Of a stretch of DNA of 64,000 bases, positions 5,007 to 16,715 are shown piece by piece. Numbering within the stretch: position 1 is the stretch's first letter; every line of letters starts with the position of its first letter. The position numbers were made by a program, and so were the translations under genes. The notes under the pieces are model-generated. The model searched no databases and was not told the DNA's origin. It worked only from the letters and a program-made list of their open reading frames with translations. The DNA is from Escherichia coli (GTDB lineage: Bacteria > Pseudomonadota > Gammaproteobacteria > Enterobacterales > Enterobacteriaceae). Where the stretch lies: the NCBI RefSeq assembly GCF_044324785.1, contig NZ_CP172129.1, one strand, 5' to 3'.

Positions 5007-6041
5007 TTAAAGCTGTGCTGCCAGAGTTGATAATAATTGTTCTGTCTGTTGCCATGATATGCATTCATCAGTAACAGACTGACCATACTCTAGCGGAAAA
5101 CTATCGGATTGTTTTCCATCTTGTAAAAAGCTTTCCACCATAATGCCAGCTACATATCCTGGTATTTTTTTCCGATTATCTATAACTTGACGTGCAACGG
5201 AAATTTGCCGTTTAGCCACTTTACCGCTATTACCATGGCTACAATCAATTATCAGACGATGGTTAATACCCTCATCATGCATTAATTTCACTGCCTTAGT
5301 TATATCAGACAAACCATAGTTAGGTTCTCTACCTCCACGTAATATTAGATGTCCATGTGGATTGCCATCGGTTAATAGTGTAGATATACTATTTGTTAAA
5401 GATGTCATATATACAATATGTTGTTCACGGGCTGCAATAATAGCGTCAATAGCTAAGTTAATATTTCCATCAGTACTGTTTTTAAATCCAACTGGACAAT
5501 GTAAACCAGACGCAAGTTGACGATGCGTTTGTGATTCAGTGGTTCTGGCACCAATAGCACCCCAACATATTAAATCAGCAATATAGGGAGTAAGAAAAGG
5601 ATCGAGGAATTCTGTAGCGGTTGCGACACGCATCGTTGTGATTGAAGACAAACACTGGCGAGCATATCGTATCCCTTTCTCAACATCATAACTTCCATTT
5701 AGATCAGGATCGTGCATTATTCCCTTCCAGCCTTTACGGGTTCGAGGTTTCTCAAAATAAGTGCGCATTACAATGTACATTTTCGATAAGTACTTATTCT
5801 GTAATACGAACAATCGCTTCGCATAATCAACTGCGGCCTGAACGTCATGGATTGAGCATGGACCAACAATCACAAGTAAGCGAGGATCTTTTCCCAGCAA
5901 AATATTCGCTATAATATCTCGTTGCAGAGAGATCCATGTTACGGTTTCTTCCGATACTGCGATTTCTTTATGAATCTCGCCCACAGTGGGTAAACTGCCA
6001 AGCAACTTCCCGCGGTAGATTAATTTACTAGCTGACTGCAT
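5007..6041 (-). CDS. 3-deoxy-7-phosphoheptulonate (DAHP) synthase, AroF/G/H class (344 aa)
   Basis: Full-length similarity to class I DAHP synthases (KPRT, GARTTESQ, IMVESF-type motifs). Confidence 0.85.
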   Translation of the reverse strand: MQSASKLIYRGKLLGSLPTVGEIHKEIAVSEETVTWISLQRDIIANILLGKDPRLLVIVGPCSIHDVQAAVDYAKRLFVLQNKYLSKMYIVMRTYFEKPRTRKGWKGIMHDPDLNGSYDVEKGIRYARQCLSSITTMRVATATEFLDPFLTPYIADLICWGAIGARTTESQTHRQLASGLHCPVGFKNSTDGNINLAIDAIIAAREQHIVYMTSLTNSISTLLTDGNPHGHLILRGGREPNYGLSDITKAVKLMHDEGINHRLIIDCSHGNSGKVAKRQISVARQVIDNRKKIPGYVAGIMVESFLQDGKQSDSFPLEYGQSVTDECISWQQTEQLLSTLAAQL

Positions 6042-6252
6042 CTTGTCTCCTAAAAGCGCTATTTCAGACCATCAGTTGCACACAGTAGATGATAATGATA
6101 ATCATTTACTGTATAATTGGCAATATATGGGGATTCATAGTCATTTCTGAGATAATATACGTTAGGCCTTCTCTCCCGTACGGAAATCACTTGTTTTCCG
6201 TAAATTACCTGAATCTTAATCCCTGAGCTGCGGCTAGCTGTGGAACTCACAA

Positions 6253-6590
6253 AAGCTGACCGGGCCGTGGCACAGCCTCTCTGCTGGCAGAACAGCGTAC
6301 TGCAGAAGTCGTCGTACTGCCGCTGGTCCCGGCATCAGGTCTGCCCGCAGATGGCACTTCTGCCACTGATCTGCCGGTGGAGCTGAACGGCATGACATAT
6401 CAGGCCTGCCGTGGGGATTTTGTGGTGCGCCTCGACGGCAGCACCTGTCTGCAGTTATAGAATAAAGAAGGCGGGGAGGTACGCAGGGAGGGCGATCCGC
6501 TGGAAGTGGCGTAGTGGCTGTAGGCCTGTAATGATGCAGGAATAGAAGTTCGTGTACAGGTTAATGAAAGCATCACCCCGTAAAAACATG
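6253..6590 (+). pseudogene. Decayed copy of the 3' half of the ORF at 15720..16310, with in-frame stops and small deletions
   Basis: DNA near-identical to about 15950-16310 but interrupted by TAG codons (e.g. cagttatag, gtggcgtag). Confidence 0.6.
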
Positions 6591-6600
6591 CCGGCACGGT

Positions 6601-6909
6601 TTACACATCATTCCATGGTGGCAGCCGGTTAACTTTCCTGCGCCACCAGTGGAAAGAGGCCATGAGCAGTCCGAACAAAAAACCACTCGTGATACTTATA
6701 ATAATGGCCTCACCTGCTACCATTCCTGACGGCCCCCAGTACATAAACCACATTGCACATCCCCAGGAAATACCCCATAAGCCCCCCATCAGCAGCGTAA
6801 CCTGCCAGAACGGCATAAAGGGCAATGGCGGAAGCCGGATACCCAGCCGCCAGAGAATACGCAGCAGAGGAGGAGCATAATTACTCCGCCACATCTTTTT
6901 GCTGTCCAT
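6601..6909 (-). CDS. Small hydrophobic membrane protein (102 aa), paralogue of 16330..16587
   Basis: Hydrophobic segments; shares N- and C-terminal sequence with the 85-aa ORF at 16330..16587. Confidence 0.45.
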   Translation of the reverse strand: MDSKKMWRSNYAPPLLRILWRLGIRLPPLPFMPFWQVTLLMGGLWGISWGCAMWFMYWGPSGMVAGEAIIISITSGFLFGLLMASFHWWRRKVNRLPPWNDV

Positions 6910-7007
6910 CAGGGCAATTGCCCGGGCTTTTTTTGCTCAAAAGTCACAGGAGCACCTCCGTTCCATGATGTAAACGTGACACAACTTATTGTTATTGATT
7001 ATTATTA

Positions 7008-7190
7008 TCATACCGTGATTATGTTGTCATGCACCTGTACACTGATAAAAGAAAGGGAGAACAGGAGGCTGGCTGAACAACCAATCCGTTCGTCCAGTTC
7101 AATGGCGGCTATCAGGTTCTGCTCCGCAATGTACTCACGAATGCGCTTCCTGTCCTGGCTGGTCAGCATGGTCCAGAATATCTCCATCAT
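7008..7190 (-). pseudogene. Truncated ParE/RelE-family toxin gene (first ~40 codons match 20033..20314, then diverges)
   Basis: N-terminus MMEIFWTML...IELDERIG matches the intact copy; loses homology at a deletion junction near 7055-7068. Confidence 0.65.
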
Positions 7191-11166: not shown

Positions 11167-12495
11167 CTTCTCAGACTACCGCTGGCGTTTTTTGAACGCC
11201 GAAAATTAGGTGATATCCAGTCACGTTTTGACTCCCTTGACACATTGAGGGCCACATTTACCACCAGTGTGATCGGGTTCATAATGGACAGCATTATGGT
11301 TGTCGGTGTTTGTGTGATGATGCTGTTATACGGAGGATATCTCACCTGGATAGTTCTCTGCTTTACCACAATTTACATTTTTATTCGTCTGGTGACATAC
11401 GGCAATTACCGACAGATATCAGAAGAATGTCTTGTCAGGGAGGCCCGTGCCGCCTCCTATTTTATGGAAACATTATATGGTATTGCCACGGTAAAAATCC
11501 AGGGGATGGTCGGAATTCGGGGGGCACACTGGCTTAATATGAAAATAGATGCGATAAATTCGGGTATTAAGCTAACCAGGATGGATTTGCTCTTCGGAGG
11601 AATAAATACCTTTGTTACCGCCTGTGATCAGATTGTAATTTTATGGCTGGGAGCAGGCCTTGTGATCGATAATCAGATGACAATAGGAATGTTTGTAGCG
11701 TTTAGTTCTTTTCGTGGGCAGTTTTCGGAAAGAGTTGCCTCTCTGACCAGTTTTCTTCTTCAGCTAAGAATAATGAGTCTGCACAATGAGCGCATTGCAG
11801 ATATTGCATTACATGAAAAGGAGGAAAAGAAACCTGAAATTGAAATCGTTGCTGATATGGGGCCAATATCCCTGGAAACCAATGGTTTAAGCTATCGTTA
11901 TGACAGTCAGTCAGCACCGATATTCAGTGCTCTGAGTTTATCTGTAGCTCCGGGGGAAAGTGTGGCTATAACTGGTGCTTCCGGTGCGGGAAAAACCACA
12001 TTAATGAAAGTACTATGTGGACTATTTGAACCTGATAGCGGGAGGGTACTGATAAATGGTATAGATATACGCCAAATTGGAATAAATAATTATCACCGGA
12101 TGATAGCCTGTGTTATGCAGGATGACCGGCTATTTTCAGGCTCAATTCGTGAAAATATCTGTGGTTTTGCAGAGGAAATGGATGAAGAGTGGATGGTAGA
12201 ATGTGCCAGAGCAAGTCATATTCATGATGTTATAATGAATATGCCAATGGGATATGAAACATTAATAGGTGAACTTGGGGAAGGTCTTTCTGGCGGTCAA
12301 AAACAGCGTATATTTATTGCACGAGCCTTATACCGGAAACCAGGAATATTATTTATGGATGAGGCAACCAGTGCTCTTGATTCAGAGAGTGAACATTTCG
12401 TGAATGTTGCCATAAAAAACATGAATATCACCAGGGTAATTATTGCACACAGAGAAACAACGTTGAGAACTGTTGATAGAGTTATTTCTATTTAA
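11167..12495 (+). pseudogene. cvaB: cvaB 3' fragment (transmembrane and ABC ATPase domains)
   Basis: Resumes in frame at the duplicated LLR codons; Walker A GASGAGKTT, ABC signature LSGGQKQR, Walker B ILFMDEATSALD. Confidence 0.85.
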
Positions 12496-12664
12496 ACCAT
12501 AGAGGAATTACAAGCGTATGAGGAATATTTCTTCCTGTTATAATTCCTCGTTATGCTCAGATATCTGTTGGAGGTGGAATGGAAGATAGACAATCCACCA
12601 AGAAGAAATATCATTCTGTGTGGATTGTCCAATAACTGTTCTTTCTTATATTAAATAATACTAT

Positions 12665-12976
12665 TTATAAACAAACATCACTAAGATTATTTGGACTCCA
12701 ATTACACAATCTTCCCGCAGCATAGTTCCATGCTTCTGAAGGTATCCCTTCGGGTTTTTGCTTAATTGTTCCCCCTAAACCGGATGGAGACATTGCAGGA
12801 TTAGGTTTGTGAGTGGATGCATAGTCATATATTGCACCTCCAGCCACACCCCCAGCAGCTGCTCCAATTCCTCCTGCAACAAATTGCCCGGATAGTGTTC
12901 CTATAGCCATCGCAATATCACGCCCTGAAGCACCACCAGAAACAGAATCTAATTCATTTAGAGTCAGAGTTCTCAT
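12665..12976 (-). CDS. cvaC: Colicin V (microcin V) precursor, 103 aa with double-glycine leader
   Basis: Leader MRTLTLNELDSVSGG followed by Gly/Ala-rich mature peptide; matches CvaC as recalled. Confidence 0.95.
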   Translation of the reverse strand: MRTLTLNELDSVSGGASGRDIAMAIGTLSGQFVAGGIGAAAGGVAGGAIYDYASTHKPNPAMSPSGLGGTIKQKPEGIPSEAWNYAAGRLCNWSPNNLSDVCL

Positions 12977-13190
12977 ATGATCTCCTTTTTATCTTATCGG
13001 ATATTGAATAATAATTATCACCAACAAAGTAACATATTGCAGACATTAATGCAGAGAAGCAAAATGTATGCATGGATAAAAAGTCCTTTCCTCTAAAAAC
13101 ACAATCATATATAGCTAATGCAATATATATTGCGGTGGCATTTATTATAAATGCAAATAACAACTCTAATTTTGTTCTTTTTCTATCCAT
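12954..13190 (-). CDS. cvi: Colicin V immunity protein Cvi (78 aa)
   Basis: 78-aa hydrophobic protein immediately upstream of and overlapping cvaC. Confidence 0.9.
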   Translation of the reverse strand: MDRKRTKLELLFAFIINATAIYIALAIYDCVFRGKDFLSMHTFCFSALMSAICYFVGDNYYSISDKIKRRSYENSDSK

Positions 13191-13235
13191 TACTTTTTAT
13201 CCCATTACTTTCTATCCCATTACCACACAAACACT

Positions 13236-13254
13236 AACGATAATGATTATCGTT
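13236..13254. promoter_or_regulatory. Fur box upstream of cvi-cvaC (aacgataatgattatcgtt)
   Basis: 19-bp palindrome close to the Fur consensus, about 45 bp upstream of the cvi start. Confidence 0.6.
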
Positions 13255-13308
13255 AACATAGTCAAGAGTGAAGGGTAGGAGGCCCTCAACCCCCTATAAG
13301 GGGTCCGC

Positions 13309-14128
13309 TTGGAAAACGGATTTCCCCACGTCAAGAGAATTGATTTGAACGAGTGGCTTCGCTACAAACAGCTCCCGTTTGTGTGTGAAAAACCCCTCTC
13401 AACAGATCTCAACTCTGCACGATATCTACAGGAGATTGCTCCAAAAGGCAGTATCGTGTCTTTTAACTACCGATATAACCCCGTCATCGACATGATAATG
13501 CGTCTGAGAAATGAGAAGAAATTAGGTGAACTGCATTTCTTCTCAGCAGAATTTAATAAAAATTCTGCACTGACCCGCCATCACCTGACCTGGCGAGACT
13601 CCGCACAACAGAGCAAAAGCAGCGGTGCTCTGGGCGATCTATCCTGTCATCTGCTTGATTTATTTTGTTTTATAGGGGAAAGCCCGGTAGTGGTTCATGG
13701 GATCAAAACGGTAAAGGGGACACGTGGGTACAAAATCAGATGGTCAGGTTGAAGTGGATGATAACGGCTATGTAATGGGCAGTTCAGAAAAGGGAGCTTA
13801 TTTCAGAGTTCATGCCAGTAAATCGGAAACAGATCATAATTTGGGACTGCATATACAGCTTGTATTTGAAAATGGTGAAATCAGATATTCAACCCACCAT
13901 GAAAATCGCCTGCTCCTGATTCTATTTAATGATACGAATACGGAAACAATTGGCTTCGACGCTCTGAAACGCTTGCCTGATCCACCACGGGAGCTTCCAT
14001 TCTGGTCTGATTCGTTTATTCATCTTCATGACGACTGGTGTGCTCTTATTAAATATGGTCACTCGTCTCCTAAGCTGGCGGACCTGTCATCCGGCCTTCA
14101 TATACAGGAAATAATTGAGGCATTCTGA
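13309..14128 (+). pseudogene. Gfo/Idh/MocA-type oxidoreductase remnant (N-terminally truncated and split over two frames near 13724-13752)
   Basis: EKP motif (FVCEKPLS) near the start of the first ORF; C-terminal domain continues in a different frame. Confidence 0.5.
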
Positions 14129-14399
14129 TATGGATACCATTCTTTTAACCGGGCTGTTTGCTGCATTTTTCACAACGTTTGCGTTCGCTCCCCAGAGCAT
14201 AAAAACTATCAGGACACGCAATACCGAAGGTATCTCCGTTGTTATGTATATCATGTTCCTGACAGGTGTAATCTCATGGATAGCGTATGGCATTATGCGA
14301 TCTGATTTTGCCGTACTGATCGCCAATATTGTCACACTGTTTCTGGCTGCACCAGTGCTTGTAATAACACTTATCAACCGCAGGAAAAAACACGTATGA
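14115..14399 (+). CDS. SemiSWEET/PQ-loop small membrane transporter (start probably at 14130)
   Basis: About 90 aa with three hydrophobic helices and a PQ motif (FAFAPQSIKTIR). Confidence 0.55.
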   Translation: MRHSDMDTILLTGLFAAFFTTFAFAPQSIKTIRTRNTEGISVVMYIMFLTGVISWIAYGIMRSDFAVLIANIVTLFLAAPVLVITLINRRKKHV

Positions 14400-14662
14400 A
14401 TATTGCAATCATCGGCGCGGGTCCTGCCGGCATCATTTCTGCCCGTAATGCGATTAAAGCAGGTCACTCCGTGGTTCTGTTTGAGAAGAATACCCGAATT
14501 GGGGGGATCTGGAACCCCTGGAGTGGTGGCGCTTACCGTAATGCCTGTATGCAGAACTCTCGTTATACATTTCATTATACTGGCTTTCCCCCTGGCGATA
14601 TCGATGAACGAAGTTGGATGCAAATGTCAGATCGTGTGCGCCTGTTAGGGCGCGGCTGGTAA
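14396..14662 (+). pseudogene. N-terminal stub (88 aa) of a flavin-dependent monooxygenase
   Basis: Dinucleotide-binding motif IAIIGAGPAGI, then a premature stop; full-length homologues are several-fold longer. Confidence 0.5.
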
Positions 14663-14689
14663 GAGAGCCTTATAGGCGCATTTGAAAAA

Positions 14690-14708
14690 CCTCCGGCTAT
14701 GCCGGAGG
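14690..14708. terminator. Hairpin cctccggc-tat-gccggagg flanked by T/A runs, between convergent genes
   Basis: 8-bp stem read directly; followed by atatttattt. Confidence 0.5.
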
Positions 14709-14717
14709 ATATTTATT

Positions 14718-15200
14718 TCATAATATTCTGAGCAGTCTTGCCGGGTTTCCTGCATAAATGCCTTTGTTCTCAATCGGTTTTACCACAACTGAACCCGCAC
14801 CAATAACAGCTCCGCTGCATATATACGGAGACAGAATAATGGCTCCACTGCCAACAGTAACCGAATCCCCCAGGGTAATGCTGATCCAGTTATCCGGTGA
14901 CGGATCTGGTGCTCCTGAACGAAACAGATCGTTGGCGAACGTCACGTTATGACCAATGAAGCAGTTCTCCCCCAGTGTTACGTTCTCACAAATAAACGTG
15001 TGCGACTGTATCCGGCTTCCACTACCAATGACACAGCCTTTCTGTATCTCAACGAAGGGGCCGACAAACACGTTGTCCCTGAGTTCACATTCATAAATGT
15101 TGACCGGTTTGACAATACGGACATTGGTCCCATAAATCACATCCCGGACAGCACATTCCATAAATTTCATACTCACACGTCCTTTAAATACAGATGACAC
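14718..15200 (-). CDS. Hexapeptide-repeat (left-handed beta-helix) acyl/acetyltransferase (start possibly at 15170)
   Basis: Repeated [LIV]-G-x-x-x-x hexapeptide pattern (VIGSGSRI, IGHNVTF, VGSGAII, IGAGSVV). Confidence 0.7.
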   Translation of the reverse strand: MSSVFKGRVSMKFMECAVRDVIYGTNVRIVKPVNIYECELRDNVFVGPFVEIQKGCVIGSGSRIQSHTFICENVTLGENCFIGHNVTFANDLFRSGAPDPSPDNWISITLGDSVTVGSGAIILSPYICSGAVIGAGSVVVKPIENKGIYAGNPARLLRIL

Positions 15201-15462
15201 TTGCCGGAATTATACAGCCCAGATTCACTTGCTATGTTTCAGAATAGCTTATAAGCCGCACTTTTACCGATACTCAGCAACAAATCAGGTCTGGATCCAC
15301 TTCAGCCGGAAACCGGATCTGCGCGGCGGGGAACGGGCATACAATATGATAATTAAGCAACTTATATAAAACCATATCTGATATTATTAATAATAAATAA
15401 CACACAAATCATGCGGGATATGATTTTTATTTGTCAGAACATTATCAGATGGAGCGTGCAGG

Positions 15463-15723
15463 ATGGATGAAGAAAGGGTGTTTTCACTCAGCTATGAACA
15501 ACTGACCCGGTTTGCGGAAAAACGCATCCGGGAATGCAATCTGGACAGCCAGGGCGTAACTTATCTCTGCGAGTCAGCCAAAGCCGGAGCTGTGCTGATC
15601 TTCTGGCATGAACTGGCCATAAATGGCTATGCCTCAATGAATGCCATAAAGAGACAGGAGATCATTGACGCCGACCATCAGCGCCTCAGAAAGCTCATCT
15701 GGCCGGAGGATGACTGGAAATGA
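15463..15723 (+). CDS. Hypothetical protein (86 aa), first gene of a two-gene GC-rich operon
   Basis: ORF with overlapping stop/start (ATGA) with the next gene; no recognisable motif. Confidence 0.4.
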   Translation: MDEERVFSLSYEQLTRFAEKRIRECNLDSQGVTYLCESAKAGAVLIFWHELAINGYASMNAIKRQEIIDADHQRLRKLIWPEDDWK

Positions 15724-16310
15724 CTCAGAGCCGCCGACCGTCGCCACTGCAGCGAAGAATGCTGATTGTGCTGGCTGCCCTTGATGAAAAACGGCCAGGA
15801 CCCGTGCTGACGCGGGACATAGAACGGGTGCTGGAGCGAAGCGGGGAAGCCCCAGTCTACGGGCCAAACCTGCGCGCCTCCTGCCGTCGTCTGGAGGATG
15901 CCGGCTGGCTGCGTACCCTGCGCGCTCCGAACCTGCAGCTGGCAGTGGAGCTGACGGACGTCGGCCGGGCCGTGGCACAGCCTCTGCTGCTGGCAGAACA
16001 GGACCGCCTCCGGGCAGAACAGCGTGCGGCAGAAGTCGTCGTACTGCCGCTGGTCCCGGCAGCAGGTCTGCCCGCAGATGGCACTTCTGCCACTGATCTG
16101 GCGGTGCAGCTGAACGGCATAACGTATCAGGCCTGCCGTGGGGATTTTGTGGTGCATCTCGACGGCAGCACCTGTCTGCAGTTATGGAATAAAGAAGGCA
16201 GGGTGGTACGCCGGGAGGGCGATCCGCTGGAAGTGGCGCAGTGGCTGCAGGCCTGTCACGATGCAGGAATGGAGGTTCGCGTACAGATAAATGAAAGTGC
16301 CGCTCCGTAA
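15720..16310 (+). CDS. Hypothetical protein (196 aa), possible N-terminal winged-helix-like domain
   Basis: Translationally coupled to the upstream ORF; a partial decayed copy exists at 6253..6590. Confidence 0.45.
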   Translation: MTQSRRPSPLQRRMLIVLAALDEKRPGPVLTRDIERVLERSGEAPVYGPNLRASCRRLEDAGWLRTLRAPNLQLAVELTDVGRAVAQPLLLAEQDRLRAEQRAAEVVVLPLVPAAGLPADGTSATDLAVQLNGITYQACRGDFVVHLDGSTCLQLWNKEGRVVRREGDPLEVAQWLQACHDAGMEVRVQINESAAP

Positions 16311-16329
16311 GAACACGCCTGTGCACGGT

Positions 16330-16587
16330 TTACACATCATCCCATGGTGGCAGCCGGTTAACTTTCCTGCGCCCCCAGTAGATAAACCACATTGCACATC
16401 CCCAGGAAATGCCCCATAAGCCCCCCGTCAGCACCGTGACCTGCCAGAACGGCATAAAGGGTAATGGCGGAAGCCGGATACCCAGCCGCCAGAGAATACA
16501 CAGAAGAGGAGGGGCATAATTGCTCCGCCACATCTTTTTGCTGTCCATCAGGGCAATGGCCCGGGCTTTTTTCTGCTCAAAGGTCAC
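16330..16587 (-). CDS. Small hydrophobic membrane protein (85 aa), paralogue of 6601..6909 with an internal deletion
   Basis: Shares termini with the 102-aa copy; lacks about 100 bp present in that copy. Confidence 0.4.
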   Translation of the reverse strand: MTFEQKKARAIALMDSKKMWRSNYAPPLLCILWRLGIRLPPLPFMPFWQVTVLTGGLWGISWGCAMWFIYWGRRKVNRLPPWDDV

Positions 16588-16715
16588 AGGAGCACCTCCG
16601 TTCCATGATGTAAACGTGACACAGCTTATTGTTATTGATTATTATTATCATGCTGTGGTTATGTTGTCATGCATCAGTACACTGACAAAAGTGCAAAAGA
16701 AAGGAAAACAGGCAG

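Follow-up and report, generated by a model that had tools for sequence, protein, structure and literature searches.

A decayed gene module of probable kanosamine-type ancestry beside the colicin V locus of Escherichia coli

Between the colicin V and colicin Ia loci of Escherichia coli contig NZ_CP172129.1 (RefSeq assembly GCF_044324785.1) lies a small group of genes that resembles a broken operon, consisting of pieces of a dehydrogenase, a SemiSWEET sugar transporter, a fragment of a flavin monooxygenase and a convergent acyltransferase. We analysed these genes within a stretch of 64,000 nucleotides (nt), referred to here as the window; coordinates without a prefix are positions in it. We conclude, with a probability of about 85%, that window 13357-15170 is the inactivated relic of a six-gene mobile module from a kanosamine-type pathway, in which the survival of the SemiSWEET gene most likely reflects youth and not selection. 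An initial annotation, made from the sequence of the window, had seen here the remnant of a small-molecule modification or transport operon; this can now be sharpened to an ntdABC/kabABC-like cluster with additional genes for a SemiSWEET, a monooxygenase and an N-acetyltransferase.

The intact cluster and its decayed form in the window

An intact cluster was located on the plasmid pAPEC-O1-ColBM (NC_009837.1, module at 69980-75332) by BLAST against plasmids, and its locus (L004) is the reference for our comparisons. It encodes, in order, a DegT aminotransferase of 412 amino acids (aa), a HAD-IIB hydrolase (phosphatase, 275 aa), a Gfo/Idh/MocA dehydrogenase (338 aa), a SemiSWEET (89 aa, WP_000379710.1), an FMO-like monooxygenase dependent on flavin adenine dinucleotide (FAD; 510 aa) and, convergently, an acyltransferase (150 aa). 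Window 13352-14608 corresponds to L004 3998-5255 at 99.4% DNA identity. There are zero differences in SemiSWEET between the window and pAPEC-O1-ColBM, and two residues differ in the acyltransferase. The search for an intact operon and the mapping of deletion and frameshift points, both proposed with the initial annotation, thus succeeded through alignment to this plasmid.

The biochemical origin of the intact cluster is indicated by the genes at its start. Among structures in the PDB, the aminotransferase is closest to 7kz3 (4.2e-91, 44% identity) and to NtdA (4k2b; 3.2e-88, 41% identity) over ~380-400 aa, with WbpE following at 2.6e-50, and it was assigned to the NtdA/KabA type. Similarly, the HAD phosphatase was assigned to the NtdB type, its best structural match being NtdB (3gyg; 5.7e-47, 37% identity) and the next PDB entry scoring 1e-06. 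Homologues of the dehydrogenase at 31-55% identity are named NtdC or glucose-6-phosphate 3-dehydrogenase, names that are database annotation transfers, and a score cliff lies beyond them. In the PDB, its best matches, including 6a3f, are sugar dehydrogenases of the Gfo/Idh/MocA family, and its top NCBIfam model is levoglucosan dehydrogenase; no equivalog-level NCBIfam assignment was obtained among the six intact proteins. The A-B-C order is contiguous and co-directional (L004 1707-4775, with stops and starts overlapping or abutting) and is kept in seven genera. Because these three genes match the NtdA/KabA, NtdB and NtdC families in ntdABC order, the remnant is taken to derive from a kanosamine-type pathway. 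The ntd/kab enzymes turn glucose-6-phosphate into kanosamine (Vetter et al. 2013, as cited in PMC5320562).

The six genes also behave as a unit. Between the E. coli plasmid and one from Rahnella aceris, DNA identity is 78.8%, the ratio of nonsynonymous to synonymous substitution rates (dN/dS) is 0.06-0.11 for each of the six genes, and homology starts and stops at the borders of the six-gene block. Purifying selection on all six genes, together with homology confined to the block, identifies it as a functional mobile module.

In the window this module is broken on both sides. The left breakpoint lies at ~13352-13356 with an AGTG microhomology, and the junction alignment sets window 13357 against L004 4002. 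This junction removes the promoter, the aminotransferase and phosphatase genes and the dehydrogenase upstream of codon 82, including the Rossmann GxGxxG fold. On the right, L004 5256-6604 is replaced by the right end of the insertion sequence (IS) IS200, with an AA microhomology at the junction. Full-length homologues of the dehydrogenase are all 337-342 aa long (more than eight genera) and those of the monooxygenase 510-512 aa across genera. Given these uniform sizes and the 99.4% DNA identity to the intact cluster, the truncations in the remnant are real and not due to chance.

The remnant open reading frames (ORFs) reflect these lesions. The ORF at 13309-13752 (147 aa) matched the C-terminal Gfo/Idh/MocA domains only (Pfam 6.8e-08), and its TTG start at 13309 and first 16 codons derive from the flank of the colicin V immunity gene cvi, outside the dehydrogenase gene. 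The following ORF (13724-14128, 134 aa), which lies beyond a 2-bp deletion, had no Pfam match. The 88-aa ORF at 14396-14662 carries the FAD-binding GxGxxG motif only, and its last 17 codons and stop are IS200 sequence. Full FMO-like architecture with FAD and NADPH sites is absent, as only monooxygenase residues 1-71 are retained. The SemiSWEET ATG at 14130 comes just after the dehydrogenase stop (TGA, 14126-14128), and an ATGA at 14396-14399 couples the SemiSWEET stop with the start of the stub. The initial annotation had described an N-terminally truncated, frame-split Gfo/Idh/MocA oxidoreductase, an intact SemiSWEET/PQ-loop ORF and an 88-aa flavin monooxygenase stub, arranged head to tail with overlapping stops and starts, and the alignments bear out each element of this description. 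Homologues complete at the same short sizes, which would have spoken for the short forms as the genuine proteins, were not found.

Comparison with other plasmids allowed the lesions to be placed in order. Illegitimate recombination first fused the cvi flank to dehydrogenase codon 82, so that the NAD-binding fold was lost along with ntdA, ntdB and the promoter. A 2-bp deletion then put the dehydrogenase out of frame, IS200 entered the T-tract of the native bidirectional terminator, and finally a deletion reaching from monooxygenase codon 72 to the tnpA stop of IS200 took out 1,349 bp of the cluster and ~600 bp of IS200. A second decayed form, present in paAPEC5202 (L005) and many other plasmids, has the same left junction and 2-bp deletion as the window; its monooxygenase continues to L004 6006 and is followed by an IS66 element. 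Since paAPEC5202 shares the left lesions and has another right end, left junction and frameshift go back to a common ancestor of the two forms, and the lesions on the right arose independently. In NZ_CP076711.1 (L014), the 3' end of the monooxygenase is followed by the native terminator, a complete IS200 in the T-tract of this terminator, and then the acyltransferase, an arrangement that by its sequence is an evolutionary intermediate. Because this intermediate has a full IS200 at the same site, the state of the window is explained by IS200 insertion and subsequent deletion. A complete IS200 abuts the acyltransferase at the same junction in 17 plasmids, NZ_CP076711.1 among them.

The same events account for the hairpin in front of the acyltransferase. 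In the intact cluster, the native bidirectional terminator (AAAAAGGGCCAGTAACGGCCCTTTTCTTTTT) fills the 31 bp between the monooxygenase and acyltransferase stops, and it is deleted in the window. The strong hairpin now found in its place, at 14690-14708 (8-bp stem, seven G-C pairs, z = -3.45), has the sequence CCTCCGGCTATGCCGGAGG and comes from the right end of IS200, where it is subterminal. The pattern of an intrinsic terminator, a G+C-rich hairpin with a T-run, is present on both strands at this position, the tail being better on the acyltransferase side (minus strand). The bidirectional hairpin that the initial annotation saw as shared with the convergent acyltransferase gene is confirmed, but it came with IS200 and is not the operon's native terminator. 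The remnant of IS200 (IS200/IS605 family) matches the right end of the element perfectly over its 111 bp, this hairpin included; in contrast to a complete element, which has tnpA and both ends, it lacks tnpA and the left end and is hence immobile. It now serves only as junction filler and as the likely terminator between the stub and the acyltransferase.

The frequency of these forms was determined in 5,426 complete RefSeq E. coli genomes. The SemiSWEET gene is present in 404 genomes, with 412 of its 416 places on plasmids and all copies at least 99% identical. The decayed left junction was found in 340 genomes, the monooxygenase::IS200 junction of the window in 113 and a near-intact cluster in 65. 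In ~84% of the genomes that carry SemiSWEET, the gene is stranded in a decayed remnant.

Residual function and the persistence of SemiSWEET

No biosynthesis is possible from the remnant. Compared with ntdABC of Bacillus subtilis and kabABC of the Bacillus cereus group, the window retains only a broken ntdC-like gene, N-terminally shortened and frameshifted, while ntdA and ntdB are absent; the pathway is dead. The SemiSWEET gene keeps both its ORF and a GAGG Shine-Dalgarno sequence. Starting from a true ATG, its product scores 96.9 bits against NCBIfam SemiSWEET_2 (cut-off 80) and 44.3 bits against Pfam PQ-loop (cut-off 22; 1.5e-11), shows the length of ~90 aa, the three transmembrane helices and the PQ-loop motif of the family, and agrees at 89/89 residues with EcSemiSWEET (PDB 4X5M/4X5N). 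The initial annotation suggested that the transporter may be the only functional part. Its ORF is indeed intact, but so is that of the acyltransferase (Pfam Hexapep 1.4e-15), which belongs to the same ancestral module. The evidence that SemiSWEET functions in the context of the remnant is mixed; the protein is active in vitro and its ORF is intact. Recent neutral decay most likely explains this state, SemiSWEET persisting because too little time has passed and not by selection.

A different explanation is that the two surviving genes form a selected module that confers resistance without production. SemiSWEET, by efflux, and the acyltransferase, by N-acetylation, would then shield ColV hosts from kanosamine-type compounds of competitors, in the manner of orphan colicin immunity genes. 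This would agree with the observation that the two non-biosynthetic genes alone are intact whereas the four enzyme genes are each missing or disrupted, with the bacteriocin and immunity genes that surround them, with the occurrence of the acyltransferase alone on many plasmids and some chromosomes, and with the conservation of SemiSWEET throughout the 404 genomes. Transcripts offer further support. Window 13101-15400 matches both pS88 and the plasmid carried by type strain ATCC 11775 at 100% identity, and transcripts of the pS88 ORFs pS88110-113 were detected by quantitative reverse-transcription PCR, in an assay not reported as strand-specific, with fold changes of 0.3-3.0 and no response to iron depletion, serum or urine (PMC3438092).

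Nevertheless, we consider such a resistance module unlikely. Plasmids of the paAPEC5202 type keep SemiSWEET and have lost the acyltransferase, the NZ_CP076711.1 form keeps the acyltransferase and has lost SemiSWEET, and E. coli also has SemiSWEET variants that are truncated, fused or interrupted by an IS. None of the five substitutions between the window and the intact cluster falls in SemiSWEET, which is not significant (P = 0.30 under uniformity, in a test without power), and the whole remnant is at least 99% identical and simply young. The four dehydrogenase substitutions sit at positions that are variable among orthologues. A scan for sigma-70-like promoters returned five against 6.1 expected, with no above-chance signal upstream of SemiSWEET. 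Equally, a uniporter is unable to pump a compound against its gradient. Neutral decay of a young relic therefore remains the favoured account.

The ancestral module and its putative product

From the enzyme families encoded, the intact module would convert glucose-6-phosphate to kanosamine (3-amino-3-deoxy-D-glucose) through C3 oxidation, transamination and dephosphorylation, and kanosamine is the most likely predicted product. We further infer that the monooxygenase and/or the acyltransferase would oxygenate and/or acetylate the C3 amine and that the product would leave the cell through the SemiSWEET uniporter. With 153.6 bits against Pfam FMO-like, the intact 510-aa protein belongs to the class B flavin monooxygenases, and its best PDB match, 8odw, is named only 'Polyketide synthase modules-related protein'. 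For the acyltransferase, the best PDB matches are amino-sugar N-acetyltransferases (WxcM-like, QdtC, 3mqg and VioB), all of them weak.

The E. coli cluster shares with ntdABC and kabABC the same enzyme families in the same order (DegT aminotransferase, HAD-IIB phosphatase, Gfo/Idh/MocA dehydrogenase), and its nearest solved structures are, by wide margins, NtdA/7kz3 and NtdB. However, the identity is 37-44%, the transporter is a SemiSWEET and not a member of the MFS, and the E. coli cluster adds the FMO-type monooxygenase and the convergent hexapeptide acyltransferase. Because of these two additional enzymes, the pathway may end in a modified form of kanosamine. In B. subtilis, the sugar transporter gene glcP presumably also sits after ntdC.

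The enzyme families would also allow a nucleotide-sugar pathway like that of WbpB, WbpE and WbpD (dehydrogenase, aminotransferase and N-acetyltransferase), in which the ancestral cluster would modify lipopolysaccharide (LPS) or capsule and make no kanosamine. The three families are the same as in WbpB/E/D, the aminotransferase does match WbpE at 3e-50, and the best PDB matches of the acyltransferase include QdtC and the LPS-biosynthesis acetyltransferase 3mqg. We regard this pathway as quite improbable, because the NtdA/KabA matches are ~40 orders of magnitude better than that to WbpE, and because the cluster holds an NtdB-type sugar-phosphate phosphatase (6e-47), which is useless to a nucleotide-sugar route. 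In seven contexts, moreover, no nucleotidyltransferase, glycosyltransferase or flippase was present in or beside the module, and a sugar uniporter is embedded in the operon.

The intact cluster gives EcSemiSWEET a genomic context. This protein has been described as an E. coli sugar (sucrose) transporter, its genomic context being undiscussed (PMC4309421), whereas in our analysis it is plasmid-borne and lies within a kanosamine-type operon. Its uptake of sucrose was slow and did not saturate at concentrations of up to 300 mM (Lee et al. 2015, PMC4309421), and sucrose was doubted as its physiological substrate in the same paper. Members of this SemiSWEET subfamily directly follow an ntdC-like gene in every context inspected (seven contexts), which makes kanosamine or a derivative a candidate substrate. 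We tentatively suggest, at somewhat less than even odds, that EcSemiSWEET is naturally a dedicated facilitator, not for sucrose, but for kanosamine or an N-oxygenated or N-acetylated derivative produced by the ntdABC-like genes, to which its own gene is coupled in translation. On this suggestion, the intact module of the ColBM plasmids of avian pathogenic E. coli (APEC), Pantoea ananatis, Rahnella and Rodentibacter, partly decayed in Erwinia amylovora, would make an undescribed amino-sugar antibiotic whose C3 amine is oxidised by the monooxygenase, and ColV plasmids would carry the export and modification leftovers only.

Several points weigh against our conclusion. The assignment to kanosamine comes from 37-44% identity and gene order, and production is predicted only. 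The NtdC names among the dehydrogenase homologues are database annotations, and the chemistry proposed for the monooxygenase and acyltransferase derives from family membership and weak PDB similarity only. In addition, the pS88 transcripts indicate that the relic is not transcriptionally silent, so a residual function of SemiSWEET is possible.

A possibly related region has been mentioned in passing on the plasmid pAA(C700-09) of enteroaggregative E. coli, where ntdABC lies with phnO, an N-acetyltransferase gene (PMC5320562). By this description it is likewise an E. coli virulence plasmid with kanosamine-pathway genes beside an N-acetyltransferase, and the paper does not mention SemiSWEET, the monooxygenase or the decayed ColV form. 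The literature library that was searched held no paper linking kanosamine and SemiSWEET, and only irrelevant co-occurrences of kanosamine with ColV.

The remnant is itself of little weight. It is a pseudogene scar of an ordinary kind, common and in part already annotated, and serves as a mark of ColV plasmid lineages. Its value is that of a pointer, first to the genomic context of EcSemiSWEET, a protein used as a structural model for the SWEET/PQ-loop superfamily, and second to an extended kanosamine-type cluster, as yet uncharacterised, that is carried by APEC virulence plasmids and by Enterobacterales associated with plants.

Layout of the locus and minor observations

The features of the remnant and its borders are listed in Table 1. 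In pS88, RefSeq labels the dehydrogenase 'frameshifted; incomplete; missing N-terminus', so a pseudogene call by the Prokaryotic Genome Annotation Pipeline (PGAP) is already in place, while PGAP still annotates the 88-aa stub as a 'FAD-dependent oxidoreductase' protein. That the short ORFs are the genuine products of a small operon of short proteins, as their open frames, head-to-tail order, coupled stops and starts and the PGAP annotation of the 88-aa product might suggest, is refuted by the alignments and the homologue lengths and has next to no chance of being correct, given that the dehydrogenase ORF takes its N-terminus from the cvi flank and the stub its C-terminus from IS200, that the Rossmann fold is gone and that the frame is split by the 2-bp deletion.

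Table 1 Features of the remnant and its borders in the window
Feature	Position	Strand	Remarks
cvaC	12665-12976	minus	From the ORF list; cvaB also present
cvi	12954-13190	minus	From the ORF list; the remnant ORFs come next
Native cvi-proximal flank of the ColV locus	13191-13356	.	12001-13356 collinear with the cluster-free ColV plasmid CP056305.1 (L003)
Dehydrogenase pseudogene, part A (ntdC-like Gfo/Idh/MocA)	13357-13723	plus	Codons 82-204 of the 338-aa protein; Rossmann N-terminus gone; from protein alignment
2-bp deletion site	13723-13724	plus	CGGGTGGG to CGTGGG; dehydrogenase frame shifted
Dehydrogenase pseudogene, part B	13724-14128	plus	C-terminal 134 aa in the +1 frame; colinear with residues 205-338 of the intact protein and orthologues
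SemiSWEET gene, intact, 89 aa	14130-14399	plus	Same protein as EcSemiSWEET
FMO-type flavin monooxygenase, first 71 of 510 codons (FAD-binding motif)	14396-14608	plus	Homology to L004 stops at 14608 = L004 5255
IS200 right-end remnant, last 111 bp, downstream of the tnpA stop	14607-14717	plus	100% identical to L002 1501-1611
Hexapeptide-repeat acyltransferase, intact, 150 aa, convergent	14718-15170	minus	14716-15326 = L004 6605-7215; sixth gene of the ancestral module

The 60-bp stretch at 13299-13356 was suspected to be a mobile-element end from 88% matches in many IncF plasmids, and this was rejected; pKPC2_115069 has no annotation there. It appears to be ordinary backbone sequence into which the junction fell. 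In Rfam, 12900-15500 gave one sub-threshold match, Ysr202 (30.8 bits against a gathering score of 315), which overlaps the IS200 remnant and is uninformative.

In other genera, the gene order is kept in Rahnella, Erwinia, Rodentibacter and Pantoea. The cluster is intact on the E. coli and Rahnella plasmids, and Pantoea ananatis has six genes, all intact; five genes are present in Rodentibacter ratti, where the acyltransferase was not called, and three ntd-like genes only in Vibrio hepatarius. Erwinia amylovora (L009/L010) has a monooxygenase split into 47 + 481 aa and a shorter acyltransferase of 130 aa. In Photobacterium leiognathi (L017), the aminotransferase, the dehydrogenase (in three pieces) and SemiSWEET (80 aa) are decayed, and in Xenorhabdus bovienii (L018) an IS splits the dehydrogenase and the monooxygenase is lost. 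The six-gene module is thus decaying independently in these last three species.

Further decay was also seen in other plasmids. At 5282-6901 of locus L014 (NZ_CP076711.1), an internal deletion fuses the 5' part of the aminotransferase (L004 2035) to the monooxygenase at L004 5763, and the HAD, dehydrogenase and SemiSWEET genes are gone, a further decayed form. An IS3-family element (IS1203) lies inside SemiSWEET at ~codon 33 in the otherwise identical plasmids CP069936.1, OY856297.1 and OY856304.1, which represents a further decay step. Chromosomal acyltransferase segments in E. coli NZ_CP056036.1 and NZ_CM185153.1 span exactly L004 6605-7215, the same limits as window 14716-15326. This 611-bp acyltransferase piece, which starts at the IS200 junction, may travel as a unit beside IS200.

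Around the remnant, a diverged direct repeat of ~0.7 kb (91-93% identity) at 6260-7051 and 15965-16691 brackets cvaA-cvaB-cvaC-cvi, the remnant, the acyltransferase and two hypothetical genes. Recombination between the two copies may have inserted or rearranged this entire block of ~9 kb. A patch of high G+C content at 15600-16400 (0.59-0.65 against ~0.43 around it) has the acyltransferase on one side and the gene for colicin Ia immunity on the other; it takes in a hypothetical ORF of 196 aa (15720-16310) and a portion of another of 86 aa. Left of the junction, a sigma-70-like site (TTGACT-17-TATCGT) at 13237-13265 on the minus strand faces cvi and cvaC, away from the remnant, and is plausibly the cvi-cvaC promoter.

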